In this document: positions 36,988 to 60,249 of the stretch, in pieces
How positions within the stretch are numbered: position 1 is the stretch's first letter
How the letters are laid out: every line of letters starts with the position of its first letter
Assembly: GCF_964204645.1 (NCBI RefSeq)
Contig: NC_134033.1
Location: forward strand, 8,378,655-8,442,654
From: Tubulanus polymorphus
Lineage: Eukaryota; Animalia; Nemertea
Length of the DNA: 64,000 bases
Direction: 5' to 3'
Notes under the pieces: model-generated
The model's input: only the letters and a program-made list of their open reading frames with translations
Database searches by the model: none
Told to the model about the DNA's origin: nothing
Program-made: the position numbers and the translations under genes

Positions 36988-37207
36988 TTATATGGGAGGA
37001 ATATATTTTTGTTTTTCTAAATAATCAATAGTTAAATTAGATAAAGTTACTGCTGATTAATTTTAAAATATCATTTATATCAAATCTATCAACATTAACA
37101 CTTCCCATTTTGAATACTTTTTTTAATACCATTGAATAACCAACAGTTCCAACTGATAGTAATGCTCCATTATATAATCCAGTTATTATCCACTTATTAT
37201 CACTCAT
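36988..37207 (-). pseudogene. Element A small hydrophobic protein (MSDNKWIITG...DYLEKQKYIPPI)
   Basis: TAAATG start; homolog of B 51259-51479; frameshifted. Confidence 0.6.
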
Positions 37208-37225
37208 TTATTTATCAAAAAAATT

Positions 37226-37593
37226 ACTATCTTCAAAATATTTAGTTAACTTAGTTATAATTATTTCAACATTTATTTCATTACTAGTTTCATTTGTATA
37301 TATTTCAATTATTATTTTTTAATATCATCGATGATAAAATCTAACTATTTCATCTAATTTTTTCTAAGGTCTTCATCTAATTCATAAAATCTTAAAGATT
37401 CTCTAATTAAATTAGTAATCTTTTCTACATTTAAAGTTTCTTTATCTATTGTTGTTTCATACTCAAATGTTGTTTCATTAGAAAATGCAATATTTTTAAT
37501 ATGTGTAATTACATCATTAATGTTAAATTTCATTTCTTTCTCACGTTTAAAATCAAACCCAAAACATATACTCGGTCCAACAGTTATATTCAT
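37226..37593 (-). pseudogene. Element A hypothetical protein (MNITVGPSICFGFDF)
   Basis: Homolog of B 50903-51243. Confidence 0.6.
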
Positions 37594-37609
37594 TTATATA
37601 ATGAAAAAA

Positions 37610-38365
37610 TTACTCTCTACATTTTATAACTAATTCATATATCACAGGAAAGTTATTTAAATCAATTAAATAACCATTATGATTTCTTATTTCTAATTTG
37701 AAATTATTGAAATGTGGAATGAAAGGTTTAAAATCACATTCTGTTAAATTATAATTTATTTGAGTTCGAAATTGTTTGACATTTTTTAATGGTAAAATAT
37801 TTAATAAACCAGAATTACAAATTGTATCTTTAGTTGCTTCGAATGTTTTTGTAGGATCAATTAGATTACAATAAATATAGAAGTGCGTAAAAGGTATTAT
37901 ATTTGGTGTAGTATCAACATTTGAATAAACTTTATTTGGATTAACTCCTAGCATTTTAGCTAATGGTTTTCTTACTATGAATTTATATTGTTCATTAGTT
38001 AACTTTTTTCTTATTTTATTAGTACTATCAATTTTATTAAATTTAATGTTAAACCCAACAGATTCACCCACTTTTAACCAAGCTCTTTTATTAATTTCTT
38101 GAGATAATGTTACTAAATTATATAATCCTGGTCTTAGAAATAGATGATACCATTTATCCATATTTCTATCATGAATCATAAACAATCTATGATCAAAACT
38201 TTTATCCGATTTATTGTAAAAAGAATTACATAAACTTATATTAACTAATTTTAAATCAACACAATTCTTGAATTCTCTATCTAATTGAACTAATAAATTA
38301 TGTGATTTATGATTTGTAAGTTTTCTAGAATCAACAAATATTCTATATTCTTTTAATTCTACCAT
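37610..38365 (-). CDS. Element A minor capsid (penton-like, single jelly-roll) protein
   Basis: VDSR...L.V.L, NS.YN, G.YN...L..EIN, LAKMLG, YIYCNLID and LEIRN.NG.LID.NN.PV.YEL pattern of Polinton/virophage pentons; intact 251 aa. Confidence 0.75.
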   Translation of the reverse strand: MVELKEYRIFVDSRKLTNHKSHNLLVQLDREFKNCVDLKLVNISLCNSFYNKSDKSFDHRLFMIHDRNMDKWYHLFLRPGLYNLVTLSQEINKRAWLKVGESVGFNIKFNKIDSTNKIRKKLTNEQYKFIVRKPLAKMLGVNPNKVYSNVDTTPNIIPFTHFYIYCNLIDPTKTFEATKDTICNSGLLNILPLKNVKQFRTQINYNLTECDFKPFIPHFNNFKLEIRNHNGYLIDLNNFPVIYELVIKCRE

Positions 38366-38433
38366 TATTTATAACATAAGAAAATTAACGCTCGTCACTA
38401 AAAATAAATTTTTATAAAATTTTTCCTAAATAA

Positions 38434-39746
38434 ATGGATGAGAAGATACCATGCGAAATTTGTGGTGAACTTCTAAGAAAAAGTAATATGGCTCAAAATA
38501 TGAAAAAACATGATGAAAATTATAAACCCCCTAAAATAAACTGCCGAAAATGTAATAAATTATTCTCAAGGAGTTATGTTAAAAAACATTTAGAGAAGTG
38601 TAAAATTAATGGCGCAACGGTTAATGTTGATAGTAACGAAAGTAATAGTAATTCTGTTGAAGTTGAACCTGAAATTATTTGGAAAAGACCTTTCTTATTC
38701 TATGATAAGGATATTATGAAAGTTCATTTCTGCGAGCCTTGTCGAATGAAATTTAGTCCTGAAAATATAGAAGCTTGGGAGAATCATCAATTTCGTAAAA
38801 TACATATAGATAAAATTTCTAATAAATTTGAAGCAGAATTCAATGGAAGAAAAAATAATATATTTGAAAAAATGAAATATGAGAAAATGTTACCAGATAA
38901 TAAAGAAACAGTTGAAAAGTTAAAACAATATAATGAATTAACAAGAAAAACATTGTAAATATTGTAAATTGATTATTACAACAAGTAATTCAAATCTACA
39001 TAATAGAACAATAAAACATAAAGAAAACGTAAGAAAATACCAAGAGCTTTAATGAAGATCTATTACCAATAAATTATAAACAAAAATGCCCACAATGTAG
39101 TTATGCGACCTTAAGACAAGAAGGTACTGTGTTATTTTGTAATGAATGTGGATGGCAAAGAAATTTATGGGGTGAAGAAAAAACTAGAGATTTTCTCATA
39201 GAACCAAAATTAAATTATCTAGATGAAATTTTTAAAATATTTTCTATAGAAGATCGTACACCAGAATATATGCAATGGCTTGAAAAAATGAAAATAATAG
39301 AAAATAAAAATGGCGAAATAACTAAAAAAGATATTATAAAAACAATTATTCCATCAACATTTAACACAAAACGAAAGAAAATGTATTTATATTTATTATT
39401 TAACGATTATTATGAAAAACCTAAATTAACAGAAGATGATATGAAAAAAACATTCAAACAAATATTAATGTATTATTTGGAAAATAGAATAACAGATTCA
39501 ATTAATTATGGATTCTTTTTAAATAAGATTGTAAATTATTTAAACATCGATATTATAATTCCATTTGACGAATTAACAAACAAAAAGAAACAAAGAGAGC
39601 GAGATGAAATGTGGCACAATATAACACGTTATTTAAATGAGAAAAATGAAATGGAAGAACCTAAACAAATTATACAAGAACAATTAAATGAAAAAGAAGA
39701 AACCAATAGTGATTTCGAGTTTGATGATATTGATTTTATAATTTAA
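38434..39746 (+). pseudogene. Element A multi-C2H2 zinc finger fused to a poxvirus VLTF3/A2L-like late transcription factor
   Basis: Fingers CEIC, CRKC..H...C, CEPC..H....H and CKYC..H....H, then a CPQC..CNEC ribbon and SINYGFFLNKI. Small indels near 38950 and 39040 break the frame. Confidence 0.7.
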
Positions 39747-42700
39747 TAACCATAAGGTAATGTTTTTATACCATCATCTAAAATATGCCTTTTATCATCA
39801 AATGGATTCAAACTAGTTTTTTCAACTTCATTAATGTACATCTCGTGATCTTGTGATCTTAAACAATTCATTTTGTGTTTCATTACAATTGAGTTATATA
39901 AACACTTTATATAATCTTGAAATTCTATATGTTTATCAACCACATGTTTTGTTATTCCTTTTAACTTTTTAGCTTCATGATCTTTTGTTCTATAACTATA
40001 CAATTTACTTCTTATCCCGACAAATTCAATCATTTCATCACCCCCTAATTCATCTTTAAATTTACCAGGAATCTTTTCATTATCATTGCTAAATAGTTCA
40101 TGATCTTTAGGATAATTGCTAAAATCGAAATGATGTTTTAATGTTTTTAAGTCTTTTGTTATGTCATTTGTCTTGATTTTTAGTATGTAGGCGTCAGTAT
40201 TTTTGGCTATTAATGGAAATCCACAGTTAAATGTACCATGTTCAGTTGATAAATCATAAACATAATCTGTTGGGTTATATATTTCAAATAAATCTTTAAC
40301 TTCTTCTGTTAACTCATTTTCTACATGGCTTAAATTAAAACAATTTGGTTTAGATTTAATCAATCCAATATTCATATTAAAACCTAATGAATTGCATAAT
40401 ATATTTAATCCTGATATAGCAACTTTTCCTTTTTGAGCTAAAGATATAGTTTTGCGGTTTTTGAAACTTTTAGTACCATCTGCTGCGTAGAATCCAATGA
40501 AGAACCATTTTCTTAAATTATTTTTTGCATTTAATACATAATCTGGAACTATCTTTTCTTTAGTTGAAGTATTACTTTTCACTATTGCATGAATATAGAA
40601 TTCGTCATTATATTTTATAGCAAAATCTTTAGGATTATTCACATGTATTCTATAACATTGCGATGATTTCATAACATCTATGATTTTAAATGTTTTATGT
40701 GAATAAACTTCTTCACAGAATTTCTTTATTCTTTCTAATAATTTCAAATCTTGATTGCATAAATACCAACAATATTGAGTGTGATAAAGATAATTATACA
40801 CACCTGCTGAACCATCACCCATGAAAAATCCTTTGATAAAATATTCTTTTTCTTCTAATGTTTCGGGTTCTATATTATAAATATTATCAATAATTTCATC
40901 GAATGACATATGATTCATTCTTTGGAAAAATCTTTTATGTAATAATTCATCTCCAATTTTTATATCAGTTGGTTTTATTTCATCGCCATTTCGTTTAATT
41001 AAACTATGATCTTCTGTAACATCTACAAACCCTAATTTAGTTCTAACTCTATAGATTTTCTTATTTGTTTTATGCCTAATAATATTCTTTAATTTTTTCC
41101 ATCCATTTCTTGTCCAAACATCCATTAAGCCATTTATTTGTATTAATTCTTTTTCACCATATGAAATATAACATTCATTTTGTTTTGGAATTATTTCTGA
41201 AATTCTTCTTATCAATATTTTATCATTACATTTTAATAATATTGGGGTGTCAGCTGTTACAGAATCAAAATATAATATTTCAATATGCTTTTCCCCAAAA
41301 AGTGGTTGTAAAACATTATAATAAAAATCATACATTAATAATTTTGATACTTCTAAAACAGTTGAACCAATGAATATAGGTTTATTAAATTTCATTGACG
41401 TTCTTTTTAATTTAACTGCTGTTAAATAATCTTCAAATCTTTTATTTCCCAAATGTCTAGGACTTGATTGTAAATGTCTTAATCTTTCAGAATTATTTAC
41501 TAATTCAATATCATTTCTATTTCTAATATTTTCACATGTTTTACCATAAAAACTATTATTCATTAATTTAAAGAAATCTTTTTCAAAATCTGTTTTTGAT
41601 ATGGTTCTCTGTTGAGTATTAAAATCTATATATTTTTCTAACCACTTCGATTGATTAAATTCAATATATCTATGTACTTTCTTTAATTTCATTCCTTGTT
41701 TTAGATAAAATTTTAACATTCTATAATGAACAATGTAATTGTATTTATTATTTTGAGTAAGTATTAATTTTTCTGTAAAATTATGATCTTTCGGTTTTAT
41801 TTTCTTCTTTCTTCTGGTATTCACTTAAATAACTATCATCTACGACTAAATGTTCTGGGCAATAAGGTAAGTTTCTTGTTTTAAACTTTATATTTTCAGG
41901 ATATTCTAAATCAACTACAAAGAAATAACCAATTGGTGCTTCATCTTTTAAACTCGCAATTGCGCTTTCCCAATCAGTTTTATCACCATTTTCAACTTCT
42001 GTTAATATAAAATTTTTATATGGTTGAGGTTGCATCATTGCCCAGCCATATAAATTATTGGCGTCAATATATAATAATTTATATTCATCATTTGCTTTAA
42101 AATATCTATCTCCCATAACACCACTAATTCCACCTCTAATTGATTTTTCAAATTATAAAACAATATCTATATTTGTTAACAAATCCATTTTTGTATCTGT
42201 AAATTTTAAACCACATTGCCAGGTTAAACCAGGACTAGAGTAGCAATAGCAGGGATCAACATTAAAATGATTCAAATTGACTTCTCTAAATTTTTCAAAT
42301 ATATCGGCTAATATCATAACATCTGATTTTAAGTAAAGATCAACTAATTCACCATGATTTTTAAAATTGAAATGATTCCATATATTCAATGTTTTATGAA
42401 AAACTTCATCTTTCACGTACTCATTTTTTAATTGATCATAAAATTGTTCTTTCATTAATTTTGTTTCTTTGAAATCATCATGCGTTTTATAAAATGAGTA
42501 AGGTATTGCGCCTTTATTTCTCAATAATTTAAAATCTTGTTCATTTGGATAATAATATCGAGTTATTATAAAATCATTATCAACTAAACTTTTTGATAAA
42601 TTATCTAATGAACTTGCTAGAAATCTATAAGAATCTAAAAATCTAATGCAACCAAATTGAAATGAAATATAATTTTCAGATGTTTTAGCTAATAGTTTAA

Positions 42701-43613
42701 AATCATATTTTCTTACATTTACACCATTCATAGCATTATATTCTTCTATTTCTTGATTAATTGCGCCCGATATTCCCGATAATTGTTTTATAAATAGATG
42801 GGCATCATAGCCTGATAAATCATGAAATAATATTGGAACGAAATTTACTTTTTTTAGCTTGTAAATTACAATCTTCATGAGCAGCTCCATGATATTTTGA
42901 ATTTAAATGATCATGATCTCTAACTTTTTTATCAAATGAATAAAAACGTTTTTCACAATAACAACAATGGGTTGCATAATTAAAATCAATTTCATCTTCT
43001 TTTGTCATAACTATTCTTTTATTTTTGTTTAATAATTCTGCAAAATCACTTTCTAATTCAATTATTTTGTTACAAAAATTATTAACTACATCTTCACCTC
43101 TAAAAGAAATATATTGACTTTCATATAATTCAGGATAATTTGATTTTATGTAAATTCCATAAGCAGCAGCTCTTTGATGAACTTTTTTAATTGTATTTAT
43201 AATTGGCGGGTCTTGAATTATATCTTCATTTAGTTCATTTCCTTTATCCATTGATTTAATAATTGCTTTTTGTTGTATATTTCTTTTCTATCTTGATTAG
43301 TTAATTCTTTATTCAACGATTCAAAATCCCCATAAATTACAAATGGAACAATATTTTTAAATTTACGATTAGTAAATCTCAATTTATAATCTTTTTCTGT
43401 TGGCATTATTAATTTACAAAAATCTTTATTATCACATAATTCTTCATGTTTTAATAATGTATTCTCAGTCATTAATTTAGATAAACATTTTCAACATAGA
43501 TAAATTTTATTATGGTGATCGCTTTCTGTTCTAAAGAATAAATCAATTTGTTTTAACCACATATAATGTTCATTTTCATCTTTTTTTTAAATATAACAAA
43601 TCTATAGCATTTT
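39743..43613 (-). pseudogene. Element A pPolB, 3' part (exonuclease, EndoVII/HNH-like insert, palm) containing an intein
   Basis: YGDFES, CCYC...VRDHDHL...GAAH..CNL, HDLSGYDAH, FLDSYRF, YLKSDV, YIDANNLYG.AM, KLMNNSFYGK, YFD[intein]TDA, PGKFKDE and KKLKGI. Confidence 0.93.
40199..41263 (-). mobile_element. Intein (355 aa) with LAGLIDADG homing endonuclease in element A pPolB, reading frame intact
   Basis: Block A SVTADTP, block B DVTEDH, LAGLIDADG helices FIKGFFMGDG and FFIGFYAADG, block F YVYDLST, block G IAKN/T. Splits YFD|TDA. Confidence 0.93.
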
Positions 43614-43698
43614 AGTAATTAGAAGATGGCGTTTTCATACCAGAGTACTAGAGTACTAGACACCACTCATCACCACAAGTAATTTTTTTTCCTAATAA

Positions 43699-46600
43699 AT
43701 GGGGGAGAATGAACACCAGCCAGAAAACAATAATGTTAATGAAAATCAATATCATTGTCCATATTGTAAAAAATACATTAATAAATCTAATAAATCTCAT
43801 CATGAAAAATCTGCAAATCATATAAAAAATATAATAGATTTTAAAACTCCAGAAAATTCCAATGAAAGAAAAGAACGATTAGAAAATATGAATGTGGATG
43901 AAATAAAATGTGAAGTTTGTAATGAATTTATAGTAAAAAGGAATTATAAAAGACATATCAAATCACAAAAACACCATCAAAATTTGAGTAATGATATTTT
44001 AGGAATAGATTATTTCGATGATAAACCTCAACAAGTAAAAAAACCAACTTCAAAAACTAAATCCATTTCAAATAAACCTTACATGGAAAATGTTAGAAAT
44101 TATATTGATTCACTAGAAATAAAAGATACAATTGAAATTTTAGAAACATTACATTCTAAAATTGGTCCTGCGGCTATTATATTTAGATTCTTTAAAGGAA
44201 CAACAATAGAAGATTATAGTAAATTTAATGAAATAATAGAAAAAATACTAGTTTTGATAACAGATGTTGAATATCCAAAAATTAATATCTCTGGGTAAGT
44301 AAGTTTTATAAAGTCAGAAGATAAAATGGATTATAGTATTCAAACACTCTCTGAAGAAATAATTTCAAAAACGCAAATAAAAGAGAAGTTAGAAAAAATA
44401 TTTAATGAATTTAAACGTCATATTGAAGAGAGATATTTAAAGGGTTCTGGTTTAACACTGAATGGAATTATATTTTTAGATTTAAATGTTTATAATACAA
44501 AAAGGAATAAAACATCAAAAAGTAAAACAATGTTTAAAAATGACTCAAACTTTACAACAGAAAAGGATATTAAAGCATCAAGTTATATTAAATTACCATT
44601 TACAACAAAAGCAGTAATAAATGTTCAAAATGAAGATAATAAATGTTTTCTATGGTCAATTATTAGTTGCTTACACCCAACAGAAGATATTACGCATAGT
44701 TTTAGAATAACAAATTACCGGAAATATGAAACATTAAATAAAATTGATCAATATCCAGTAACTATAAAAATGATACCCAAAATAGAAAAAATTAATAAGT
44801 TAAGAATAAATGTATTCGAATTAATGCAATTACCAAAGACAAAAGGTGAAAATATTAAAGATTATACATTGGAAGCTTTATATTTAACAGAATATTATGA
44901 TGATGAAAATGCTATAGATTTGTTATATTACAAAAAAGATGAATATGAACATTATATGTGGTTAAAACAAATTGATTTATTCTTTAGAACAGAAAGTGAT
45001 TTTAACAGTCATAAAATCTATCTATGTAGAAAATGTTTATCTAAATTTAGAACTGAGAATGCGTTACTAAAACATAAAGAATTATGTGATAATAAAGATT
45101 TTTGCAAATTAATAATGCCAACAGAAAAAGATTATAAATTGAAATTTACTACTCATAAATTTAAAAATATTGTTCCATTTGTAATTTATGGGGATTTTGA
45201 ATCGTTGAATAAAGAATTAACTGATCAAGATAGAAAAGAAATATATAACAAAAAGCAATTATTAAAATCAATGGATAAAGGAAATGAATTAAATGAAGAC
45301 ACAACACAAGACCCGCCAATTATAAATACAATTAAAAAAGTTCATCAAAGAGCTGCTGCATATGGAATTTATATAAAATCAAATTATCCCGAATTATATG
45401 AAAGTCAATATATTTCTTTTAGAGGTGAAGATGTAGTTAATGATTTTTGTAACAAAATGATTGAATTAGAAAGTGATTTTGCAAAATTATTAAACAAAAA
45501 TAAAAGAATATTTATGACAAAAGAAGATGAAATTGATTTTAAGTATGCAACTCATTGTTGTTATTGTGAAAAACGTTTTTATTCATTTGATAAAAAAGTT
45601 AGAGATCATGATCATTTAAATTAAAAAATATCGTGGAGCTGCTCATGAAGATTGTAATTTACATGCTAAAAAAGTAAATTTCGTACCAATATTATTTCAT
45701 AATTTATCAGGTTATGATACCCATCTATTTATAAAACAATTATCAAGGAAATTGGGCACAATTAATCAAGAAATAGAAGAATATAATGCTATGAATGGTG
45801 TAAATGTAAGAAAATATGATTTTAAACTATTAGCTAAAACATCTGAGAATTATATTTCATTTCAATTTGGTTGCATTAGATTTTTAGATTCTTATAGATT
45901 TCTAGCAAGTTCATTAGATAATTTATCAAAAAGTTTAGTTGATAATGATTTTATAATAACTCGATATTATTATCCAAATGACCAAGATTTTAAATTATTG
46001 AGATATAAAGGTGCAATTCCTTATTCATTTTATAAAACACACAATGATTTTAATGTAACAGAATTATTAAAAGATCAATTTTATGATCAATTAAAAGAGG
46101 AGTATGTGAAAGACGAAGTGTTTAATAGAACATTAAATATTTAGAACCATTTTAAGATGAAAAATCATGGGGAATTAGTTGATTTATATTTAAAATCAGA
46201 TGTTATGATATTGGCTGACATATTTGAAAAATTTAGAGAAGTTAATTTGAATCATTTTAATGTTGATCCTTGTTATTGCTACTCTAGTCCTGGTTTAACC
46301 TGGCAATGTGGTTTAAAATATACAAATGTAGAATTAGATTTATTAAAAGAACCAGATATGGTTTTATTATTTGAAAAATCATTTAGAGGTGGAATTAGTG
46401 GTGTTATGGGAGATAGATATTTTAAAGCAAATGATGAATATAAATTATTATATATTGACGCCAATAATTTATATGGTTGGGCAATGATGCAACCTCAACC
46501 ATATAAAAATTTTATATTAACAGAAGTTGAAAATGATGATAAAACTAATTGGGAAAGCGCAATTATGAGTTTAGAAGATGAAGCGCCAATTGGTTATTTC

Positions 46601-48767
46601 TTTGTAGTTGATTTAGAATATCCCGAAAATATAAAGTTTAAAACAAGAAACTTACCTTATTGCCCAGAACATTTAACCGTAGATGATAGTTATTTAAGTG
46701 AATACCAGAAGAAAATAAAACCGAAAGATCATGTTTTTACAGAAAAATTAATACTTACTCAAAATAATAAATACAATTACATTGTTCATTATAGAATGTT
46801 AAAATTTTATCTAAAACAAGGAATGAAATTAAAGAAAGTACATAGATATATTGAATTTAATCAATCGAAGTGGTTAGAAAAATATATAGATTTTAATACT
46901 CAACAGAGAACCATATCAAAAACAGATTTTGAAAAAGATTTCTTCAAATTAATGAACAATAGTTTTTATGGTAAAACATGTGAAAATATTAGAAATAGAA
47001 ATGATATTGAATTAGTAAATAATTCTGAAAGATTAAGACATTTACAATCAAGTCCTAGACATTTAGGAAATAAAAGATTTGAAGATTATTTAACAGCAGT
47101 TAAATTAAAAAGAACGTCAATGAAATTTGATAAACCTATATTCATTGGTTCAACTGTTTTAGAAGTATCAAAATTATTAATGTATGATTTTTATTATAAT
47201 GTTTTACAACCACTTTTTGGGGAAAAGCATATTGAAATATTATATTTTGATTCTGTAACAGCTGACACCCCAATATTATTAAAATGTAATGATAAAATAT
47301 TGATAAGAAGAATTTCAGAAATAATTCCAAAACAAAATGAATGTTATATTTCATATGGTGAAAAAGAATTAATACAAATAAATGGCTTAATGGATGTTTG
47401 GACAAGAAATGGATGGAAAAAATTAAAGAATATTATTAGGCATAAAACAAATAAGAAAATCTATAGAGTTAGAACTAAATTAGGGTTTGTAGATGTTACA
47501 GAAGACCATAGTTTAATTAAACGAAATGGTGATGAAATAAAACCACCTGATATAAAAATTGGAGATGAATTATTACATAAAAGATTTTTCCAAAGAATGA
47601 ATCATATGTCATTTGATGAAATAATTGATAATATTTATAACATAGAACCCGAAACATTAGAAGAAAAAGAATATTTTATCAAAGGATTTTTCATGGGTGA
47701 TGGTTCAGCAGGCGTGTATAATTATGTTTGGGGTAATAAATATTGTTGGTATTCATGCAATCAAGACTTAAAATTATTAGAAAGAATTAAGAAATTCTGT
47801 GAAGAAGTTTATTCACATAAAACATTCAAAATCATAGATGTTATGAAATCATCGCAATGTTATAGAATACATGTGAATAATCCTAAAGATTTTGCTATAA
47901 AATATAATGATGAATTCTATATTCATGCAATAGTGAAAAGTAATACTTCAACAAAAGAAAAGATAGTACCAGATTATGTATTAAATGCAAAAAATAATTT
48001 AAGAAAGTGGTTCTTCATTGGATTCTATGCCGCAGATGGCACTAAAAAATTTACAAAGGATAAAAAGATAACATTTGCACAGAAAGGAAAAGTATCAGGA
48101 TTAAATATATTATGCAGTTCATTAGGATTTAATATGAATATAGAATTAATTAAATCTAAACCAATTTGTTTTAATATAAGGCATGTAGAAAAAGAATTAA
48201 CAGAAGAAGTTAAAGATTTATTTGAAATATATAACCCAACAGATTATGTTTATGATTTATCAACAGATGATGGAACATTCAATTCTGGGTTCCCATCAAT
48301 CCAAAAAAAATACCGACAGTTACATACTAAAAATCAAGACAAATGACATAACAAAAGACTTAAAAACATTAAAACATCATTTTGATTTTAGCAATTATCC
48401 CAAAGATCATGAACTATTTAGCAATGATAATAAAAAGATTCCTGGTAAGTTTAAAGATGAATTAGGGGGTGATGAAATGATTGAATTTGTTGGGATAAGA
48501 AGTAAAATGTATAGTTACAGAACAAAAGATCATGAAGCTAAAAAGTTAAAAGGAATAACAAAATATGTGGTTGATAAACATATAGAATTTCAAGATTATA
48601 TAAAGTGTTTATATAACTCAATTGTAATGAAACATAAAATGAATTGTTTAAGATCAGAAGATCACGAGATGTACATTAATGAAGTTGAAAAAACTAGTTT
48701 GAATCCATTTGATGATAAAAGACATATTTCAGATGATGGTATAAAAACATTACCTTATGGCCATTAA
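43699..48767 (+). pseudogene. Element B pPolB (N-terminal zinc fingers, EndoVII/HNH insert, intein)
   Basis: Colinear ORFs 43699-44298, 44326-45624, 45752-46144, 46157-48346 and 48222-48767. Nonsense codons at 44296 and 46142; frameshifts near 45622 and 48303-48310. Confidence 0.93.
47252..48311 (+). mobile_element. Intein with LAGLIDADG endonuclease in element B pPolB
   Basis: YFD|SVTADTP ... KN|TDS with the same blocks as in A. One extra A in an A8 run just before the terminal Asn. Confidence 0.92.
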
Positions 48768-50073
48768 AACATAAAATCAATATCATCATACTCGAAATCA
48801 CTATTGGCTTCTTCATTTTCATTTAATTGTTCTTGTATAATTTGTTTAGGTTCTTCTTCCATTTCATTTTTCTCATTTAAATAAAGTTTTATCTTGTTCC
48901 ACATTTCATCTCGCTCTCTTTGTTTCTTTTTGTTTGTTAATTCGTCAAATGGAATTATAATATCTATGTTTGAATAATTTACAATCTGATTTAAAAAGAA
49001 TTCATAATTAATTGAATCTGTTATTCTATTTTCCAAATGATACATTAATATTTGTTTGAATATTTTTTTTATATTTTCCATATCTTCTTCTGTTAATTTA
49101 GGTTTTTCATAATAATCGTTAAATAATAAATATAAATACATTTTCTTTTGTTTTGTGTTAAATTTTGACGGAATAATTGTTTTTATAATATCTTTTTTAG
49201 TTATTTCACCATTTTTTTCTATTATTTTCATTTTTTCAAGCCATTGCATATATTCTGGTGTATGATCTTCTATAGAAAATATTTTAAAAATTTCATCTAG
49301 ATAATTTAATTTTGGATCTATGAGAAAATTTCTAGTTTTTTCTTCACCCCATAAATTCTTTTGCCATCCACAATCAACACAAAATAACACAGTACCTTCT
49401 TGTCTTAAGGTCGCGTAATTACATTGTGGACATTTTCGTTTATAATCTATTGGTAATAGATCTTTTCTTACGCCTTCTTTATGTTTTATTGTTCTATTAT
49501 GTAGATTTGAATTACTTGTTGTAATAATCAATTTACAATATTTACAATAATATGTTTTTCTTGTTAATTCATTATATTTTTTTTTCTAACTTTTCAACTG
49601 TTTCTTTATCTGGTAACGTTTTCTCATATTTTATTTTTTCTAATAAACTATTTTTTCTTTCATTGAATTCAGTTTCAAATTTATTAGAAATTTTATCTAT
49701 ATGTAATTTACGAAATTGATGATTCTCCCAATCTTCTATATTTTCAGGGCTATATTTTACTCGACAAGGCTCGCAGAAATGATCTTTTATATTATCCTTA
49801 TCATAGAATAAGAAAGGTCTTTTCCAAATACCTTCAGGTTCAACTTCAGCAGAATTACTATTACTTTCATTACTATCAACATTAGCCGTTGCACCATTAA
49901 TTTTACACTTCTCTGAATGTTTTTTAACATAATTTCTTGAGAATAATTTATTACATTTTGGACAGTTTAGTTTAGGGGGTTTATAATTTTCATCATGTTT
50001 TTTTCATATGTCGAGCCATATTACTTTTTCTTAGAAGTTCACCACAAATTTCACATGCTATCGTCTCATCCAT
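48764..50073 (-). pseudogene. Element B zinc finger / VLTF3-like fusion gene
   Basis: TAAATG start at 50073. ELTRKTYYCKYCKLIITT reads through into ORF 48764-49531 (CPQC...CVDC, KIFKQILMYHLEN, SINYEFFLNQI). Upstream frameshifts lie in T runs. Confidence 0.72.
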
Positions 50074-50131
50074 TTATTAGGGAAAAAAATTACTTGTGGT
50101 GATGAGTGGTAATTTTTTTATGTTATAAATA

Positions 50132-50886
50132 ATGGTAGAATTAAAAGAATACAGAAAATTTGTTGATTCTAGAAAACTTACAAATTATAAATCACATAAT
50201 TTACTAGTTCAATTAGATAGAGAATTTAAGAATTGTGAAGATTTAAAATTAGTTAATATAAGTTTATGTAACTCATTTTACAATATATCGGATAAAAGTT
50301 TTGATCATAGATTGTTTATGATTCATGATAAAAATATGGATAAATGGTATAATCTATTTCTAAGAACAGGATTATATAATTTAGAAACATTATCTCAAGA
50401 AATTAATAGAAGAGCTCGGCTAAAAGTGGGTGAATTTGTTGGGTTTAACATTAAATTTAATAAAATTGAAAGTACTAATAAAATAAGAATAAAGTTAACT
50501 AATGAACAATATAAATTCATAGTAAGAAAACCATTAGCTAAAATGCTAGGAGTTAATCCAAATAAAGTTTATTCAAATGTTGATACTACACCAAATATAA
50601 TACCTTTTACGCACTTCTATATTTATTGTAATTTAATTGATCCTACAAAAACATTCGAAGCAACTAAAGATACAATTTGTAATTCTGGTTTATTAAATAT
50701 TTTACTATTAAAAATGTCAAACAATTTGGAACTGAAATAAATTATAATTTAACTGAATGTGATTTCAAACCATGTATTCCACATTTTAATAATTTTAGAT
50801 TAGAAATAAGAAATCATAATGGTTATTTAATTGATTTGAATAACTTTCCTGTGATATATGAATTAGTTATAAGATGTAGAGAGTAA
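50132..50886 (+). pseudogene. Element B minor capsid (penton-like) protein, frameshift near 50712
   Basis: Homolog of A 37610-38365. Confidence 0.75.
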
Positions 50887-50902
50887 TTTTTTCATTATAT
50901 AA

Positions 50903-51243
50903 ATGAATATAACTGTTGGACCGAGTATATGTTTTGGGTTTGATTTTAAACGTGAGAAAGAAATGAAATTTAACATTAATGATGTAATTACACATATCAA
51001 AAATATTGCATTTTCTAATAAAACAACATTTAAGTATGAAAAAACAATAGATAAAGAAACTTTTAACGTAGAAAAGATTACTAATTTAATTAGAGAATCT
51101 TTAAGATTTTATGAATTAGATGAAGATTTTATCATCGATGATATCAAAAAATAATAATTGAAATATATACAAATGAAACTAGTAATGAAATAAATGTTGA
51201 ATTAATCATCACTAAGATAACTAAATATTTTGAAGATAGTAAT
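50903..51243 (+). pseudogene. Element B hypothetical protein
   Basis: ORF 50903-51154 plus a frameshifted tail; homolog in A. Confidence 0.6.
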
Positions 51244-51258
51244 TTTTTTGATAAATAA

Positions 51259-51479
51259 ATGAGTGATAATAAGTGGATAATAACTGGATTATATAATGGA
51301 GCATTACTATCAGTTGGAACTGTTGGTTATTCAATGGTATTAAAAAAGTATTCAAACTGGGAAGTGTTAATGATGATAGATTTGATATCAATGATATTTT
51401 AAAATTAACATTAGCATTTACTTTATCTAATTTAACTATTGATTATTTAGAAAAACAAAAATATATTCCTCCCATATAA
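51259..51479 (+). pseudogene. Element B small hydrophobic protein
   Basis: TAAATG start; homolog of A 36988-37207; frameshifted. Confidence 0.6.
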
Positions 51480-51503
51480 ATGCGTAATTATTTTACTAAA
51501 TAA

Positions 51504-51921
51504 ATGGCTTGTGCAATTATAACTATTATAGGATCGGCAATTGTTAACGCTTTAGCATTTACTGGTGGCGGTTATTTATTTAAGCATATTGATAAAAATA
51601 GTTCATTAGGAAAACAAAGAAGACATAATTTAGCATTAGAGAAATAAAGCAGCAGAAGAATACAGAGAAAAACGACAAAACTATATGGATTATATTAACA
51701 AGGAATTATATGATCAGAAGATTTCACATAGAGATTTTCAATCAGTTGATGATGCAATGAGTTTATATAACGCAGTAACCAATAAAGAAAAATTACATCT
51801 ATACAAACCAAAATTATCAGATTATTATACCCCAAGTAAAGAACAACAGAAATATGAAATAATTTGGATTTTAGGTGGAACAGTTATTGTTATATTTGTA
51901 GCATATAAATTTACTAATTAG
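51504..51921 (+). pseudogene. Element B conserved small protein (IVNALAFTGG)
   Basis: TAAATG start, small deletion near 51645, C-terminal TM segment. Confidence 0.7.
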
Positions 51922-51940
51922 TAATTTTTTTTCTAAATAA

Positions 51941-52375
51941 ATGGAAGATAAAGTTGATAGTATTGATATTATTCCTCATGATTTAAATAAAACTAAATTG
52001 AAAATATATTTAGAAAAACAAATATTAGAATTTGAAAGTGACTTAAAGATAAAAAAGAAAAAATATTTAAAAAGTAAAATTATATATTATTTGATTATAA
52101 GTGGTTCGGTTACAATTAGTTCTGTAATAACATTTCTAGCAATATTCAGTCCATTAACACCTTTAGCTATTTCAATTGGTGTATTAGGATTAAGTTCAAG
52201 TGTTTTAACTGGTATAAGTTCAAAATTAAATATAAAAAGTAATAAAGAGAAAATTAAAACTAATATAAAAGAAATTAATAAATTAAAGAATACACTAGAT
52301 TATATAATAAGTTTAAATGGTCATATAACAGTTGAAGAACAAGATAAATTATTAAAAGAATTAATAAATTATTAA
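51941..52375 (+). CDS. Element B two-TM hypothetical protein
   Basis: Intact 144 aa with a hydrophobic hairpin. Confidence 0.75.
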   Translation: MEDKVDSIDIIPHDLNKTKLKIYLEKQILEFESDLKIKKKKYLKSKIIYYLIISGSVTISSVITFLAIFSPLTPLAISIGVLGLSSSVLTGISSKLNIKSNKEKIKTNIKEINKLKNTLDYIISLNGHITVEEQDKLLKELINY

Positions 52376-52391
52376 TTTTTTAATTATATAA

Positions 52392-53777
52392 ATGGTAGAT
52401 AGTTTTCCAAAAGCTTTCCAATATAATAAATCAATTAAATATAATATTCCAGCAATAGATTTTAATAAAGATATTACATATAGAAATGAAGTTTTAGATT
52501 CATTAACTAATTTAGAAATTTATGTTACTGAAACTAATAATTTTAATGCAAAGATGGAAAATATATTTCATGTATATTTAATTAATTTTAAAAAATTGAA
52601 AGATGAAAAACAATGGTTATTAAAATCTAATATGAAGTATTGGCAGAACCAATTAAATTTTGCTGTTTATTGTGCAACAACAGGATGTGGAATTAGTTGG
52701 AATGATCATTTGAATAATTCTGAATATAAATTAATTCAAAGTTTATTTAGATTTCATACATACTTTCAAATCAGAATAATATTAAATGAATTAGAGTGCG
52801 CTTTACCAGGATCTAGGTATTTTAAAGAATTAGATAATAATATTGATTTATCAAAGTTTTATAAAATTTGTAATGAATTTAATATAGATATAAATAATTC
52901 TGATTTTAGAACAAAAATTGGAACAATAAGATCACTTCCTTGCCCTAAAAAGATTGCAGAATATTGTGCACTTCCCATACCATCTAATAGTTTGTATAAT
53001 ATCTATAGTAATAAATTAGGTTATGGTAAAATACAAACTAAGGATTTAGAATCATTAAATTTCAATAAATTACCGACATTTTATGATAATTTAAAACAAG
53101 AAAACAATAATGGTTGGGTTTATTTCATTTTAGAAAATAATGAAGGTTTTACAAAATCAGGTATACAAAGAATAAATCAATCTATTAGAACTTATTTGAT
53201 ATGTATTTTAGGTGCGCAAGTTGAAACAAGATCCCCAATAATTGGAAATTTAAATACATCATTTGATACACAAAAATTCAAAGTATTATTTGAAGATTCT
53301 ATTCATAATGATAAAAATAGATCGATTCCAGAAAACATTGTAAGATATCAAAATCATTTAGATAAATCTCATGTAAGACTAAATTATTGTATGGGCCCTA
53401 ATCTATTAATTATTTCTAATGATTTAGTACTAAAGATGGGAAACATAATTGGTTACAATAATCTAATTAAAACTGCAACAATAAATAATTCATTTGGATT
53501 AAATGATATAAATAAAAAGATTATTACCGCTCCAAAATTAATGGAAGGTGAAAAAAATAAAAAACACATGCAATCAACAGAAACTAAAACTAAAAATATT
53601 AAATTGCATAATGATTCTAAAATAAAAGATTACAATACATCAGAAAATATAAAAACTGATAATATTCAACATGATATAATTAAAACTAATAATGATAATA
53701 AATTCCATGAAAATACTAAATTAGCTTTAACTTGTACAGGAATTGTTATAGGAGGAATATTATATTTTAAATTTTAA
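52392..53777 (+). CDS. Element B conserved Polinton protein with C-terminal membrane anchor
   Basis: Intact 461 aa: WQNQLNFAVYCATTGCGIS, FRFHTYFQ.R.IL..L...LP, RINQSIRTY..CILGAQ. Confidence 0.8.
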   Translation: MVDSFPKAFQYNKSIKYNIPAIDFNKDITYRNEVLDSLTNLEIYVTETNNFNAKMENIFHVYLINFKKLKDEKQWLLKSNMKYWQNQLNFAVYCATTGCGISWNDHLNNSEYKLIQSLFRFHTYFQIRIILNELECALPGSRYFKELDNNIDLSKFYKICNEFNIDINNSDFRTKIGTIRSLPCPKKIAEYCALPIPSNSLYNIYSNKLGYGKIQTKDLESLNFNKLPTFYDNLKQENNNGWVYFILENNEGFTKSGIQRINQSIRTYLICILGAQVETRSPIIGNLNTSFDTQKFKVLFEDSIHNDKNRSIPENIVRYQNHLDKSHVRLNYCMGPNLLIISNDLVLKMGNIIGYNNLIKTATINNSFGLNDINKKIITAPKLMEGEKNKKHMQSTETKTKNIKLHNDSKIKDYNTSENIKTDNIQHDIIKTNNDNKFHENTKLALTCTGIVIGGILYFKF

Positions 53778-53793
53778 TTTTTTTATTATATAA

Positions 53794-55223
53794 ATGGATG
53801 TAGAAGGTGGAGAAGATATTGGAATGGACCCTTTAGATGAACCTGGTATAACTGATGAACAACAACCTGATTTTAGTGAAACAAGTTTTAATGTCGGTAA
53901 TGAGTCAGGATATAATAATAATTTGAATATGCCTGATTATATTGAAAATGCAGAATCACAATTAAATCCTGAAAATTTAGACCCAGATTTAGTAAAACAA
54001 GATTTAGATAATTTAAACAAAATACCTAAATTAGAAGATTTAATTGAAAAATCTAAACTTAACATAAATGATGAAGACGTTGGACTTTTAGCAGATCAAT
54101 TAAAATTTTTAGATAATGGTAAATGTTATTATCGTTTGAAAGGTGATTATTATATTGATATCACTTATAAAAATAATGAAAATAAAATATTATCAGAATC
54201 AACTTTAGAAAAATTAAAACCAGATAGAATTAAAAGAATAAGTAATAGTAATGAAATAACTGATGTTACACAAAATGAAAGAGATGATAATATAGACGTA
54301 TTTAAACAAAAAATTAATGAATTATTTGAAATAATCAAAAAGAAATCAGAGACAGAAACAACTTCTGAACAGAATATAACTTCCAAAACTAGTAAACTTA
54401 AATCAAATAAAGTTTCAATTGAAAAACTTTTACCGAATGGATTAATTGATGCAACAGATCAAGAATTAGAAGATTTAGATATATTTTCTGATAAAGCAAT
54501 TAGAGAGATTATTAGTATAAGAAATGAAGCTGATAAAATTGCGCATGATAAAAGTATAAGAGATTTAAAAATTAGAACTTTAGAAAAAGAATTAACTGAT
54601 AAAAATAAAAAAATAGAACAATCAAAATTAGATAGAGATAATAAAGTTATTGAAGAAATCGAATTTAAAAAAAGAAATGCGTGTTTAGAAAAAGAAAAGA
54701 TGATTTAGAATATAACATAGAATTACAAAAAGAAGAAATTAAATTATTATTAAAATCATATGATTATAATATTAATAGATTAAAAGTTATTTTTAAAGAT
54801 TTATTGATAAAACCAAATTCTGAAATATCATTGAAAGATAGAATAAAGTTATTATTTAAATTAGAAGGAATAACAATTCTTTCAATTCTAACAGCTGTAA
54901 CTATGTTATTTACAACAATTGGTTTAGCTATATCAAATTCATTAAAATCTACTCCTACTCCAAATAAACCAGATAAACGCCAAGATAATAATTCTATACA
55001 AGATAAAGTTAAGGATGGTTTAAAGAAATTAGCAAAATATTTATGGGAACTATCTAAAAAATCTGCCGCAGCTTTACCAGGAATTATTGCATCAATTGTT
55101 GGTTTTATATTGAAATCTGCTGGGAATATTCTTAACTTTGCTGCTGAACATATTATTTTATTTTTAATAACAGTTGTAAGTGCTATTATTTTTGGGTTAG
55201 TGAATATGATTGAAAATAAATAA
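53794..55223 (+). pseudogene. Element B coiled-coil / hydrophobic C-terminus protein, one frameshift
   Basis: ORFs 53794-54708 and 54681-55223 overlap at an A-rich frameshift. Confidence 0.72.
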
Positions 55224-55243
55224 TTAATTTTTTTGTTAAATAA

Positions 55244-56465
55244 ATGAGTGGGAGTTATATAAGTCCTTCTAAGATTTCTAGAATATCTAATGCTATTAAA
55301 GCAGAAAGATCACATCATATAATTACTCATAATCCTTCAAATATTAATCCCGATGAAACTTTATATGATAGAATTCCTAGATTGACACAAAATACTTTTT
55401 ATGTTCCAAATAGTATTTATTTATCAGCTGATATAAAAGTAATTGGTCATGATAATAATTATGTTGTTGATAATGTTGGGAGATATTTGATTAAAAAATT
55501 AACTCTAAAGATTGGTCCAGAAACAGTTTTCTCATTAGATGATTATAATTTATTTATGCATTATAAAGATTTATGGTTAACTAAAGAAAATAGAAATAAT
55601 ATGATATCTCAGGGTATTCAATCGGAAAACCATAATAAATTAAGATCAGGAGCTAATGACGCAATAGTAACTCGTGCCACAGGTAATTTGATTAAAAAGA
55701 TTTATGGAAGCAAATATAAAATTCCATTAGACTTTATATAAATATGTAATTCAAGAAGATATTATATTTGAGATAACATTTGCTCCTGTAAATGAAATTG
55801 TATTATCTAGCGTTGTTAAAGATATGGGTTATAAATTATCAAATATATGTTTAGAATATGACACAGTAACTAATGAAAATATTGCTAGCACAATTCAAAC
55901 TCGATACAATCAAGGATTTTCATTATTATATGATTATATTGATAAATTTAAAACTGTAACTATTAATGCAAATGATGAAATAATTAATGAGAATATTAAC
56001 TTCCCAAGAAGATCTATTAAAGGTATATTAATATTTTTTACCATTGCAACATATTCTAATGGCGCAATAACGGTTGATAATTATTATAATCCTGAAATAA
56101 CAAAAGTAGAAATAACTATCGAAGGAATAGCAAATAAAATATTTTGTCAAGGAATGAGAATGATAGATCAGTGGCCAGAAATTAGAGAACATTTTATGAA
56201 TGAAAAAGTAAAATCATTTGAAAATTGTAATATTAATCAAATTGATTATTATACCGGCAATAAATATGCATTATGGTTAGATTTTAGAACAACAGAGGAT
56301 AATTCATAACATGGTTCTGGAAAAAAACTACAGAACACAAAAGATGGAATACAATTATTCATGACAAAGAATAAAGGAATCAAAAATTTCAAAATGCACA
56401 TTTATATTATATCTGACGCGCAATTAAATATTGTAAATTCACAATTAGATAGTATTCAATATTAG
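55244..56465 (+). pseudogene. Element B major capsid protein
   Basis: Same MCP motifs as A. A deletion near 55738 removes ELINNNAP; stop at 56307-56309. Confidence 0.8.
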
Positions 56466-56495
56466 AAATATAAAGTTAAAATCAACGATATATAA

Positions 56496-57623
56496 ATGGG
56501 TGGTAAAAAAACTCCTAATACTAAAGAACAATATTTAAGAAATTTATATTGCAACCCTGAGAGTTCGGTTGCTTATTCTTCTACTAAAAATATATGGCGT
56601 CAAGTAAAACAAGATAAATTAGATAAGATAATCACACAAAATTTAGTTAAATATAAAGATATAAATGAATTTATGTTAGAACAACCAACATACACAACAC
56701 ATAAAAAAATTTTTAGAAAATATAAAACTCGTAAAACTATGGTAAGTTATGGAGATCAACAGTGGCAAGGAGATTTAATTGATATGAAAAATGTTAAGAA
56801 AGATAATGATGATTATTGGTGGTTATTGAATATAATTGATATTTTTAGTCGTTATGTATGGAGTTTCCCACTTTATATAAAAGATGCTGTACAAACATCA
56901 AATGTTTTAAGAAAATTTCTTTCGGATGATAAACTAAAACCAGAAAAAATACAATTTGATGATGGAAAAGAATTTGATAATTCACTTGTCCATGAACTCT
57001 TAGATAATCATAATATTAAATATTTTTCAACAAAATCGGATAAAAAAGCAGCAGTTATTGAACGATTTAATAGAACATTAAGAACAAGAATGTGGAAATA
57101 TTTTACAGCAAATAATACTTTTAAATGGATTGATGTTTTACCGAAATTGATAGAAGGATATAATAATTCTTATCATTCTTCTATTGGAATGAAACCTATT
57201 GATGCTAGAAAACCTGAAAATGCTGAAATTGTTTGGAATAATTTATATGGAGCATTTCTTGTAGATGATTTTGGTGAACCTAAATTTAAAGTTGGTCAAA
57301 ATGTTAGAATTTCTAAGTATAAAAAGATATTTGACAAGGGATACGATCGAAATTTTACTAGAGAAATATATAAAATAAAAAAGGTTATAACAACAAAACC
57401 ATATGTCTATAAATTAGAAGATTTAGATGGTGAAGAAGTTGATGGCTACTTCTACGAAGAAGAATTAAGTTTAACTACAGAAAATCTAGAACAAGAATAT
57501 AAAATTGAAAAAGTATTAAAAACAAAAACTATTAAAAGAAAAAAATATTCTTTAGTAAAATGGGTTGGATGGCCGGATAAATTCAATGAATGGATATTAT
57601 CAAGTAAAATTAAAAATATATAA
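56496..57623 (+). CDS. Element B rve integrase with chromodomain, intact
   Basis: 375 aa; DDE triad (GDL, DDGKEF, ERFNRT) and chromodomain YKIEKVL...YSLVKWVGW...NEW. Confidence 0.93.
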   Translation: MGGKKTPNTKEQYLRNLYCNPESSVAYSSTKNIWRQVKQDKLDKIITQNLVKYKDINEFMLEQPTYTTHKKIFRKYKTRKTMVSYGDQQWQGDLIDMKNVKKDNDDYWWLLNIIDIFSRYVWSFPLYIKDAVQTSNVLRKFLSDDKLKPEKIQFDDGKEFDNSLVHELLDNHNIKYFSTKSDKKAAVIERFNRTLRTRMWKYFTANNTFKWIDVLPKLIEGYNNSYHSSIGMKPIDARKPENAEIVWNNLYGAFLVDDFGEPKFKVGQNVRISKYKKIFDKGYDRNFTREIYKIKKVITTKPYVYKLEDLDGEEVDGYFYEEELSLTTENLEQEYKIEKVLKTKTIKRKKYSLVKWVGWPDKFNEWILSSKIKNI

Positions 57624-58230
57624 ATGAATAAGGAATTATTCATATTTGAGCCTCATAGTATGTTAATTTCTGGTGTAACAAATTGTGGAAACTTATTTTA
57701 TATTAAATTTATTAGAAACTGTTTATAAAAACTATTTTGATAATATAGTATTATTTTGTCCAACGTATGAATTTAATCAAACTTATGATAGAAATATTAC
57801 TAGAAATAATAAATTTATTATATTAGATCCTAAAACAGTTAAAGAAAATTTAGATAATTGTATTAAAATAGCAATTGATATTTATAAAGGATCAAATACA
57901 TTATTCATTATAGATGATTGTGCTAATATACATGATTCAAAAGTTAGAGAGAGTGAGTTATGCTACTTAGCTTTTTCTGGCAGACATTTTGGGATAACAA
58001 CTTTGGTTTTAAATCAAAAATATAATTCAATTGTTAAAGACTTTAGAGAAAACATTAGATTTCTAGTTTTATTCTACAATAAAGATAGAAAATCGATGAA
58101 AAATGCACTTGAGGAAAATGATATTATTCCACATGATTTACATAATGAATATATGGATAAGTTGAAAAATATTAAAAGATCAAAATTACTATTTAGATTA
58201 CAACACCCATTTAAATATGAATTTATTTAA
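57624..58230 (+). pseudogene. Element B packaging ATPase, 1-nt deletion in Walker A
   Basis: tgtggaaacttat vs A tgtggaaaaacttat shows a shorter A run. The rest is colinear with A 22006-22614. Confidence 0.85.
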
Positions 58231-58590
58231 ATTCAACTGGCTTGTTAATCTAGTTGAATTCTAGTTATTGGTAGTTGTAACAAAAATCAACTAGATTTAA
58301 CAATATTTTAACTAGCTTGTTAATCTAGTTGAATTCTAGTTACATTCTAGTTGAATTCTAGTTGTTAGTAGTTGGAACAAAAATCAACTAGATTTAACAA
58401 TATTTTAACTAGCTTGTTAATCTAGTTTAATTCTAGTTACATTCTAGTTGAATTCTAGTTGTTAGTAGTTGGAACAAAAATCAACTAGATTTAACAAGAA
58501 ATAAACACAAACAACAATATTTCAACTAGCTTGTTAATCTAGTTGAATTCTAGTTACATTCTAGTTGAATTCTAGTTGCAACATCACAAC
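58230..58590. repeat. Element B CTAG-rich tandem array
   Basis: About 87-bp units (starts near 58310, 58397, 58524) built from ttctagttgaa/ttctagttaca 11-mers. Confidence 0.88.
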
Positions 58591-58609
58591 TAATTTTTTT
58601 GTTATATAA

Positions 58610-59215
58610 ATGGTAGGTGAAAAGAAAATAAAATCTAAAAATGGTGATGTTCCAATTGAAAAAACTTTAGATGATTTAGGAATAACAGAAACAAAATAAA
58701 CTCCAGATGATGGTGTTATAAATAATGTTACAACAAATAATAATTATGAATATTATCTTTATTGTAAACATCAATTAGAAATATTAATAGCATCTGGAAA
58801 ATGTAAAAATTTTGTCGGTAAAAATTTAATTTATAATGAATTAGATACAATGAAATCAGATGAAATTATTAGATTATTTAAGATTTATGAAGCCGCGAGA
58901 ACAGCTAGAATTAATGATGCGATATCAGAAAATGTAGTAAAAGGTTATAGTAAATTATGTAATTATATACTACCAATTGAAGATGAAAATAGATTATATT
59001 CCGATTTAAAAAATGATTATTTAGTTATGACTGAATTAAATAAATGGATTGGATATTTATCATTTCAATTAGGTGGATTTATGACATTATTATCAACTGG
59101 AGTTATAACATTATCAAATATTGAAAGTAAAAATATTTCTATAATAAATGAACAAGGCGGAAGAAGTGAAGGAATTAACTGTGAACAAAAAACCGAGATC
59201 ACAGAAACAAATTGA
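58610..59215 (+). pseudogene. Element B conserved hypothetical protein with an early stop
   Basis: Homolog of A 21110-21700; TTA>TAA near 58697. Confidence 0.72.
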
Positions 59216-59513
59216 ATGGTCTCGGCAATTAGGAATTAAATCACAAGAATATAAAAAAGCTGTAAAAGAAAAGATAAGTGATAAAAATGTTAATAGAAAT
59301 AGTGAAAATATTGTTATTTCTACTCCTTCTTATGATAGAATATTTGATAAATGTCTATATTTTACAGTTGGATTTGTAATTGTATTCATTTTGATTGGGT
59401 GTAATTGGTATAAGAAATCAAATAAAATTCATGATATTAATAATTCTGAAACAACTGCTATCAAAAATGAAAATAATTCTGAAATTCCAAAATTGACGAT
59501 AAAAATGGATTAA
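59148..59513 (+). CDS. Element B single-TM protein
   Basis: Intact 121 aa, TAAATG start, LYFTVGFVIVFILIG segment. Confidence 0.7.
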   Translation: MNKAEEVKELTVNKKPRSQKQIEWSRQLGIKSQEYKKAVKEKISDKNVNRNSENIVISTPSYDRIFDKCLYFTVGFVIVFILIGCNWYKKSNKIHDINNSETTAIKNENNSEIPKLTIKMD

Positions 59514-59664
59514 TATTTTAGAAAAAAAGCAAAATAAAATATTTTTTTTTAATTAATTGAATATCTCACTACTTTTGTCTATCTATGCGGAGCAATTAAA
59601 TTGTCCAGATAAGTCATTTCGGATTCTAGATATTCATTATTTTTATTAATTTATTTTTTTAAAT

Positions 59665-59990: not shown

Positions 59991-60249
59991 TTATAAGGAA
60001 AACAAATTACTTGTGGTGATGAGTGGGGATTACTTCCCCCCTGTATATAACGAACACACTATTAACCGTTCTCATCCAGTTCTCAGTAGAGACTCACCGT
60101 ATCGATCTATCCACGCGCAGATGTTGTTACGCGCACTCACTGTATACGTGTATCACAGAGCAATCGTCCGTTCTCACTAGAGCCTAGCTGTGATGAGTGG
60201 TGTCTAGTACTCTAGTACTCTGGTATGAAAACGCCATCTTCTAATTACT

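Follow-up and report, generated by a model that had tools for sequence, protein, structure and literature searches.

Polintons, or Mavericks, have capsids and no RNA polymerase, and the way in which they express their genes, as well as the need of animal Polintons for a helper virus, are open questions that are addressed here. Homologs of VLTF3 (A2), which is a late transcription factor of poxviruses, have already been published in coral polintoviruses (PMC11131425), Zephyrvirus VC123/126 (10.64898/2026.06.19.733378) and MELD viruses (PMC8502044). In these polintoviruses and Polinton-like viruses (PLVs), as in the case described here, VLTF3 is an accessory gene and the Polinton-type element that carries it has no RNA polymerase; the term 'zinc finger' does not occur in the available text of the three papers, and the passages at hand mention no promoter motif. 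Entomopoxvirus-associated PLVs (PMC11296320) and virophages also have small, Polinton-related genomes and are proposed parasites of a poxvirus or a giant virus, and the available main text on the former does not contain the words 'promoter', 'VLTF' or 'transcription'. As described there, these parasites were found with their helper, whereas the element analyzed here is integrated, encodes PolB and an RVE integrase, and no helper virus was found for it. This element resides in a 64-kb stretch of contig NC_134033.1 of the nemertean Tubulanus polymorphus (hereafter the window, that is, the whole stretch analyzed), which contains two Polinton copies, E1 and E2. The segment 48764-50073 in E2 is a decayed Polinton/Maverick gene that combines four zinc fingers with a C4 zinc ribbon and a helical domain of the VLTF3/A2 type.

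That a Polinton carries VLTF3 at all has been known before; what appears to be new is the finger fusion, together with a start signal of pox-late type at the genes of the same element, and the interest of the locus stems mainly from this matched, pox-late-like promoter system. The literature search, with supplements and Krupovic & Koonin 2016 outside it, yielded no report of a zinc-finger fusion of VLTF3; neither was a pox-type Polinton promoter found in the literature. The available parts of PMC8715426, PMC5499653, PMC4642659, 10.1101/2024.03.23.586382, PMC11464507 and PMC12917281 held nothing further of bearing.

The fusion gene is represented in the window by two decayed copies, A in E1 and B in E2 (Table 1). 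A phmmer search of 1.84 billion proteins gave five matches (P0001-P0005), two of which contain the four fingers, the ribbon and the VLTF3 domain within one open reading frame (ORF), namely P0001 (697 aa, 47% identical, a three-member cluster) and P0002 (446 aa, 35% identical). A DNA run under the same species label, from another sample, supplied 5784 reads that are scattered over 85-100% identity to the window gene, which indicates many gene copies; at the two breaks of copy B, the window sequence is not shared by 144 of 231 reads and by 141 of 201 reads, respectively. Because P0001 and P0002 carry the fusion as one ORF and most of these reads lack the breaks of copy B, the pieces belong to a single gene, as the initial annotation had proposed, with uninterrupted fusions indeed present elsewhere. 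Altogether, the domain fusion is real and conserved, here inside a decayed Polinton. The notion that copy B reads through holds only locally: it has two breaks (near 50000 and near 49580), both window copies contain two frameshifts each, and the intact P0001 aligns with each copy over three frames (tblastn). The small deletion attributed to copy A does exist, at the point where ELTRKT meets YYC, and finger 1 of this copy lacks the first His; all the peptides quoted in the initial annotation occur in copy B.

The other matches are more distant. P0003 resembles the fusion protein in its C-terminal domain but lacks the block of fingers, and P0005 is a classical VLTF3, the sole one among the five, the N-terminus of which passes PF08792; P0004, a terpene synthase, was dropped as a false match. 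A word-indexed protein search with the copy B ORF gave no match and an alignment search recovered its own members only; two metagenome loci considered as relatives proved to be chance matches. The longest contig is 12,994 nt for both P0003 and P0064, an ATPase that is 61% identical to that of the element; a shared contig is only a possibility, hinting at a related element carrying the unfused factor.

Several lines of evidence support the homology of the C-terminal half to VLTF3/A2 that was claimed at the outset. With the trimmed domain as the query, PF04947 gave 25.0 bits (E 1.7e-5) for copy B and 23.7 bits for copy A against a cut-off of 25 bits; an earlier scan matched one of four trimmed queries (24.6 bits), and neither the whole window ORFs nor the whole proteins P0001-P0003 matched this model. 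In the ESM Atlas, 27 of 30 matches fall in VLTF3 clusters, some of them from Preplasmiviricota. BLASTP aligns the window gene with P0005 at 27% identity over 195 aa, ribbon included, and a profile made without P0005 matches this protein with a probability of 96% (E 2e-9). The ribbon cysteines align one-to-one with those in the N-terminus of P0005, which is positive for PF08792, although the window ribbon gives no match to that model. The ribbon spacer comprises 13 residues, equal to that in P0005, rather than the 15 given initially. The window gene shares with the poxvirus A2/VLTF3 family (PF04947 and PF08792) the C4 ribbon with its 13-residue spacer followed directly by a short helical domain; it differs in an N-terminal addition of about 200 residues, in which the four fingers lie, and in an acidic tail, and scores at or below the Pfam cut-off.

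For structural comparison, an AlphaFold model of the homolog P0002 (mean pLDDT 57.5) was used in place of the window protein; a single-sequence fold of the copy B ORF was unusable (pLDDT 39.7). In a Foldseek search of BFVD with the P0002 model, 13 matches reached E<=0.001, and seven of them bear the name VLTF3 (best E 1.1e-5, target TM score 0.56); ranks 1, 3 and 5 are entomopoxvirus and cowpox VLTF3 (E 1e-5 to 6e-5). VLTF3 was not found by sequence searches of the PDB, and the Foldseek search of the PDB returned no match at E<=0.001. Compared with solved structures using VIA, the P0002 C-terminal domain resembles cyclin folds, including TFIIB and Pol III preinitiation complex (PIC) chains, with middling Z scores of 5-7. 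The zinc ribbon followed by a cyclin-like fold is reminiscent of TFIIB/Brf (VIA Z 5.3-5.9 to PIC chains), but the window type has a single cyclin-like repeat, shows 0-8% identity and scores level with other cyclins, so that this is a match of fold and not of family membership.

The fingers are less regular than the four C2H2-like units reported initially: four Cys/His fingers do precede the ribbon in that order, but finger 2 is of the C2HC type and the spacing is mostly CxxC-x11-H, with x11 in fingers 1, 2 and 4 and x14 in finger 3. Only the pair 1-2 is in tandem, fingers 3 and 4 standing tens of residues from their neighbors. Krüppel fingers follow the consensus C-x2-C-x12-H-x3-H and are joined by short conserved linkers; a Krüppel-type C2H2 array was ruled out by the x11/x11/x14/x11 spacing, the C2HC finger and the isolation of fingers 3 and 4. 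The finger pair 1-2 of P0002 matches CTCF finger pairs (E 2.6e-5), the P0002 equivalent of finger 3 passes zf-C2H2_jaz (26.6 bits, cut-off 22.6) and also matches zf-met, finger 4 in the P0002 model resembles 7vpx_N (VIA Z 5.6) and JAZ 2mkn (Z 4.6), and the ESM Atlas neighbors of the isolated fingers are, weakly, zf-met/jaz. The fingers comprise one tandem pair and two isolated fingers of matrin/U1 type. Fingers of the matrin/U1/JAZ-like class often bind RNA. The suggestion that the protein possesses its own DNA-binding module is plausible for the CTCF-like pair 1-2 and unproven overall, fingers 3 and 4 being isolated and of the matrin/U1/JAZ type.

The N-terminal region of PolB (43699-44295) contains two x11 matrin-like fingers that resemble finger 1 (BLASTP E 0.001) and are a plausible source of the fingers in the VLTF3 gene. 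This similarity brings up an alternative that we consider very unlikely, namely that the gene is dispensable cargo into which fingers and promoter were shuffled from the N-terminus of PolB. Such an origin agrees with the x11 fingers at the beginning of PolB and with the 22-bp promoter extension (see below) that precedes both genes, with the related C-terminal domain of P0003 that lacks the finger block, and with a ratio of nonsynonymous to synonymous substitution rates (dN/dS) near 1. Against it, the four-finger fusion stays an open frame at 35-47% identity, and the common indels among copies keep the frame: of 12 indels listed in the reads, nine are multiples of three, two are located at the breaks of copy B, and one is rare (5/229).

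The substitution rates themselves suggest little purifying selection on the fusion gene, with dN/dS values between copies A and B of 0.68 and 0.87, which are based on small counts and not significant; in five other element genes, the values are 0.19-0.45. The dN of the fusion gene is 0.047-0.072, compared to 0.018-0.032 for the integrase (INT), ATPase, PolB and the divergent gene located next to copy B, and 0.058 for the major capsid protein (MCP). The high dN/dS, for which the counts are small, fits either relaxation or conflict and would speak against a tightly constrained role. Conflict would be expected if the protein were mainly a decoy or dominant-negative factor directed against the late transcription of a helper, the element being an antiviral defense and the fingers tethering the protein to RNA, DNA or another protein. 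The amino-acid change that is faster than in INT, ATPase, PolB and the divergent gene would fit this possibility, and a virophage-like defensive role has been proposed for Mavericks (PMC8097293). Nevertheless, we deem such a function improbable: a factor that poisons late transcription in general would also strike the genes of the element itself, which bear the late-like signal, the ribbon cysteines and C-terminal motifs are retained in all homologs, and the dN/dS counts are small.

A property of the element that the initial annotation did not mention is the signal at its gene starts, of the general form TAA/T-run/ATAAATG. Among 15 assigned gene starts in E2, six of which are short or broken and were partly chosen by the motif, ATAAAT is present at the start codon in all 15 (with G as the next base in 14), as is AA at -15/-14; T at -10 and a T-run ending 5-7 nt upstream of TAAAT are found in 12 each. 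A test blind to the motif gave TAAATG at 7 of the 16 ORFs of at least 100 aa in E2 versus 43 of 648 other ATGs (p 6e-5), and of the nine ORFs missed, eight lie within genes that frameshifts have split into pieces. For E1, TAAATG marks 5 of 9 long ORFs in one part and only 1 of 8 in the other, fragment-rich part; outside the element, the figures are 1 of 7 for the long terminal repeat (LTR) element and 1 of 4 for the left flank. A stricter form of the pattern, which was defined post hoc, has 11 occurrences versus 0.045 in Markov shuffles. An extension of 22 bp occurs in six copies in the window (none by chance), always before the PolB start, gene B or the right-end ORF; it is identical at these three kinds of starts, and copy A lacks it. 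Depletion of the pox early terminator TTTTTNT in coding strands (6 versus 17) was discounted as evidence because the same holds for A-runs and for long T-runs of every kind, which amounts to a general avoidance of homopolymers.

The layout of this signal is that of the vaccinia late promoter, in which a T-containing core lies 5-7 bp before TAAAT(G/A) (PMC5294985), with T at -10 added by another source (PMC11980589). In common with the vaccinia late (and intermediate) promoter, the element has TAAAT(G/A) over the start codon, T at -10 and, 5-7 nt upstream, a core rich in T; it differs in being more rigid, with the invariant AA at -15/-14 and the 22-bp extension at three starts, and in using the signal for replication and structural genes alike. 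If the gene were dispensable cargo, the start motif would merely reflect how a compact, AT-rich genome arranges its stops, starts and translation context. In line with this, the upstream gene at INT/ATPase ends with the TAA of TAAATG. However, the spacing within the motif is fixed, and because the signal is also present at four starts that have no adjoining upstream gene on that strand, it is not merely a terminator. Since nearly all genes start at a pox-late-like signal, the element likely switches on its own genes.

Tentatively, and at somewhat short of an even chance, we favor the possibility that the fusion protein serves the element as an initiation factor of its own and probably acts with the RNA polymerase of a poxvirus-type helper. 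The ribbon and the cyclin-like domain would dock on the polymerase in a TFIIB-like manner, and the fingers would raise the affinity for the element's own templates, the pair 1-2 via DNA and fingers 3 and 4 via nucleic acid or protein. The element promoters could then outcompete the late promoters of the helper, harm to the helper being a virophage-like by-product, and the 22-bp extension before PolB, the fusion gene and the right-end ORF might mark a first-expressed class. Pox late mRNAs carry a non-templated 5' poly(A) leader. The helper polymerase is preferred because a core over the ATG is more easily reconciled with a pox-type polymerase, which starts inside TAAAT, than with a TATA box for Pol II. 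Also on this side are the gaps of just 16 nt between a stop and the next ATG in several genes and the lack of AATAAA depletion in coding strands. The link to a viral polymerase that had been suggested for this gene gains from the pox-late-like signal at 15 of 15 starts examined, and loses from VLTF3 being already known in polintons and kept by viruses without an RNA polymerase, as well as from only fingers 1 and 2 forming a tandem pair. The broader proposition, that an endogenous Polinton of an animal lives as a virophage on a poxvirus-type virus, with a pox late promoter before every gene, and that the VLTF3 fingers steer the helper polymerase to the parasite genome, seems unlikely; if true, the parasite would itself encode the factor that gives a stolen viral polymerase its specificity.

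The main competing scenario is that the fusion protein is a private TFIIB-like factor for the host RNA polymerase II in the nucleus, with no helper needed; we regard it as only somewhat less probable than the helper polymerase. The TAA/T-run would then be an initiator with a short leader, and the fingers would recognize the promoter in place of TBP. The ribbon and cyclin fold have the layout of TFIIB, integration relies on an RVE integrase with a chromodomain, and nucleus-dependent viruses without an RNA polymerase keep VLTF3 together with TFIIB (10.64898/2026.08.29.747986). Conversely, the signal is most conserved where it overlaps the ATG, a position at which a TATA box for Pol II would be useless, and the coding strands contain about as many AATAAA as expected (60 versus 59.4 in 13.9 kb), a weak argument as AATAAA alone does not force cleavage.

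Several considerations weigh against an initiation factor working with a helper polymerase. No helper virus, transcripts, 5' ends or binding were observed. VLTF3 is kept by viruses that have no RNA polymerase and probably depend on the nucleus of the host (10.64898/2026.08.29.747986), and ariadnaviruses and mriyaviruses are cases of VLTF3 retained without an RNA polymerase, so VLTF3 does not imply a helper. The element encodes a chromodomain integrase and resides in a nuclear genome. Vaccinia late transcription needs A1 and G8 besides A2 (A1L, A2L and G8R are named in PMC5294985), and neither A1 nor G8 was seen in the element. The motif was defined on the same data, with six short or broken starts partly picked by it; the starts of E1 and E2 are not independent because the copies are 90-94% identical; and the signal was compared within the 64-kb window. 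The structural evidence comes from the P0002 model with its mean pLDDT of 57.5, and the pox proteins may lead the Foldseek list through their shortness rather than as the donor. The dN/dS of the fusion gene, exceeding that of the other five genes, points in the same direction. Nonetheless, with a modified VLTF3 coupled to one rigid start signal at every gene examined, the questions of expression and helper need are reduced to simple tests, and the element gives natural access to VLTF3, which belongs to the core genes of giant viruses, has a poorly known mechanism and showed no solved-structure match.

Table 1. Coordinates of the predicted Polinton copies, the fusion gene and its parts, and the start signals, in window positions (TIRs, terminal inverted repeats).
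Feature	Position	Strand	Remarks
Polinton copy E2	43614..60249	+	Carries gene B; 60-bp perfect TIRs; 6-bp target duplication, 5/6 matching
Polinton copy E1	19342..61545	-	Carries gene A; 6-bp target duplication, 6/6 matching; split by E2 and an LTR retrotransposon
ZnF4-VLTF3 gene, copy B	48764..50073	-	ATG at 50073, stop at 48764; ~436 codons; pseudogene; frameshifts near 50000 and near 49580
ZnF4-VLTF3 gene, copy A	38434..39746	+	Pseudogene; frameshifts near 38950 and near 39040
Finger 1	49995..50055	-	C-x2-C-x11-H-x3-H; frameshift break at finger end
Finger 2	49905..49964	-	C2HC, C-x2-C-x11-H-x3-C; tandem with finger 1; weak Pfam zf-C2HC_2, E 0.038
Finger 3	49701..49775	-	Isolated; C-x2-C-x14-H-x5-H; matrin/JAZ-like
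Finger 4	49481..49546	-	Isolated; U1-C/matrin type; Pfam zf-U1 26 bits, cut-off 22
C4 zinc ribbon	49370..49432	-	CxxC-x13-CxxC; A2L/TFIIB-ribbon position
VLTF3-like helical (cyclin-fold-like) domain	48870..49340	-	Pfam core 48887-49108
Acidic C-terminal tail	48767..48860	-	Read from sequence
Start signal of gene B	50071..50109	-	Core TAA/T-run/ATAAATG and 22-bp extension 50088-50109
Core signal of the divergent gene starting at 50132	50110..50134	+	TAAATA variant

E1 and E2 are identified as Polinton/Maverick copies by their TIRs, target duplications, pPolB, RVE integrase, A32 ATPase and capsid protein. E2 is inserted inside the PolB gene of E1 in the opposite orientation. According to Pfam, the element encodes pPolB with an intein, an RVE integrase with a chromodomain, an A32 ATPase and MCP, with matches to PolB (E 1e-5), rve (E 4e-9), Pox_A32 (E 1e-7) and, weakly, Capsid_N (E 9e-4); no RNA polymerase or protease was detected among the element ORFs scanned. 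The divergent gene encodes a protein of 251 aa that is a minor-capsid candidate by position only, the family search having given no match. The PolB intein (46145-48343 on the plus strand and 39746-41824 on the minus strand) contains a LAGLIDADG remnant, weak in Pfam, with intein_Nterm above the cut-off. A small right-end ORF (59665-59990, minus strand; 19429-19752, plus strand), without a family match, lies in the terminal region behind the extended promoter. A TCTAG-rich 97-bp unit is repeated 2.6 times between the ATPase gene and the next ORF (58249-58497, and at ~21730-21900). An ORF with two transmembrane segments (51941-52375) shows a weak SLATT match (E 0.004); SLATT is also drawn on the PLV and MELD maps in two papers on such viruses.

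The surroundings of the two copies contain further mobile elements. The LTR retrotransposon within E1 (28449-36677), which we take to be Bel/Pao-like, has 301-bp LTRs that are 97% identical. An older PolB remnant, 72-74% identical, is found at 14966-18464 on the minus strand, and another element copy begins at 63763-64000 on the plus strand. The region 10000-11900 is an AT-rich fragment that has no blastn match to E1 or E2; it contains zinc-finger ORFs and a TAA/T-run/ATAAATG start at 10751.

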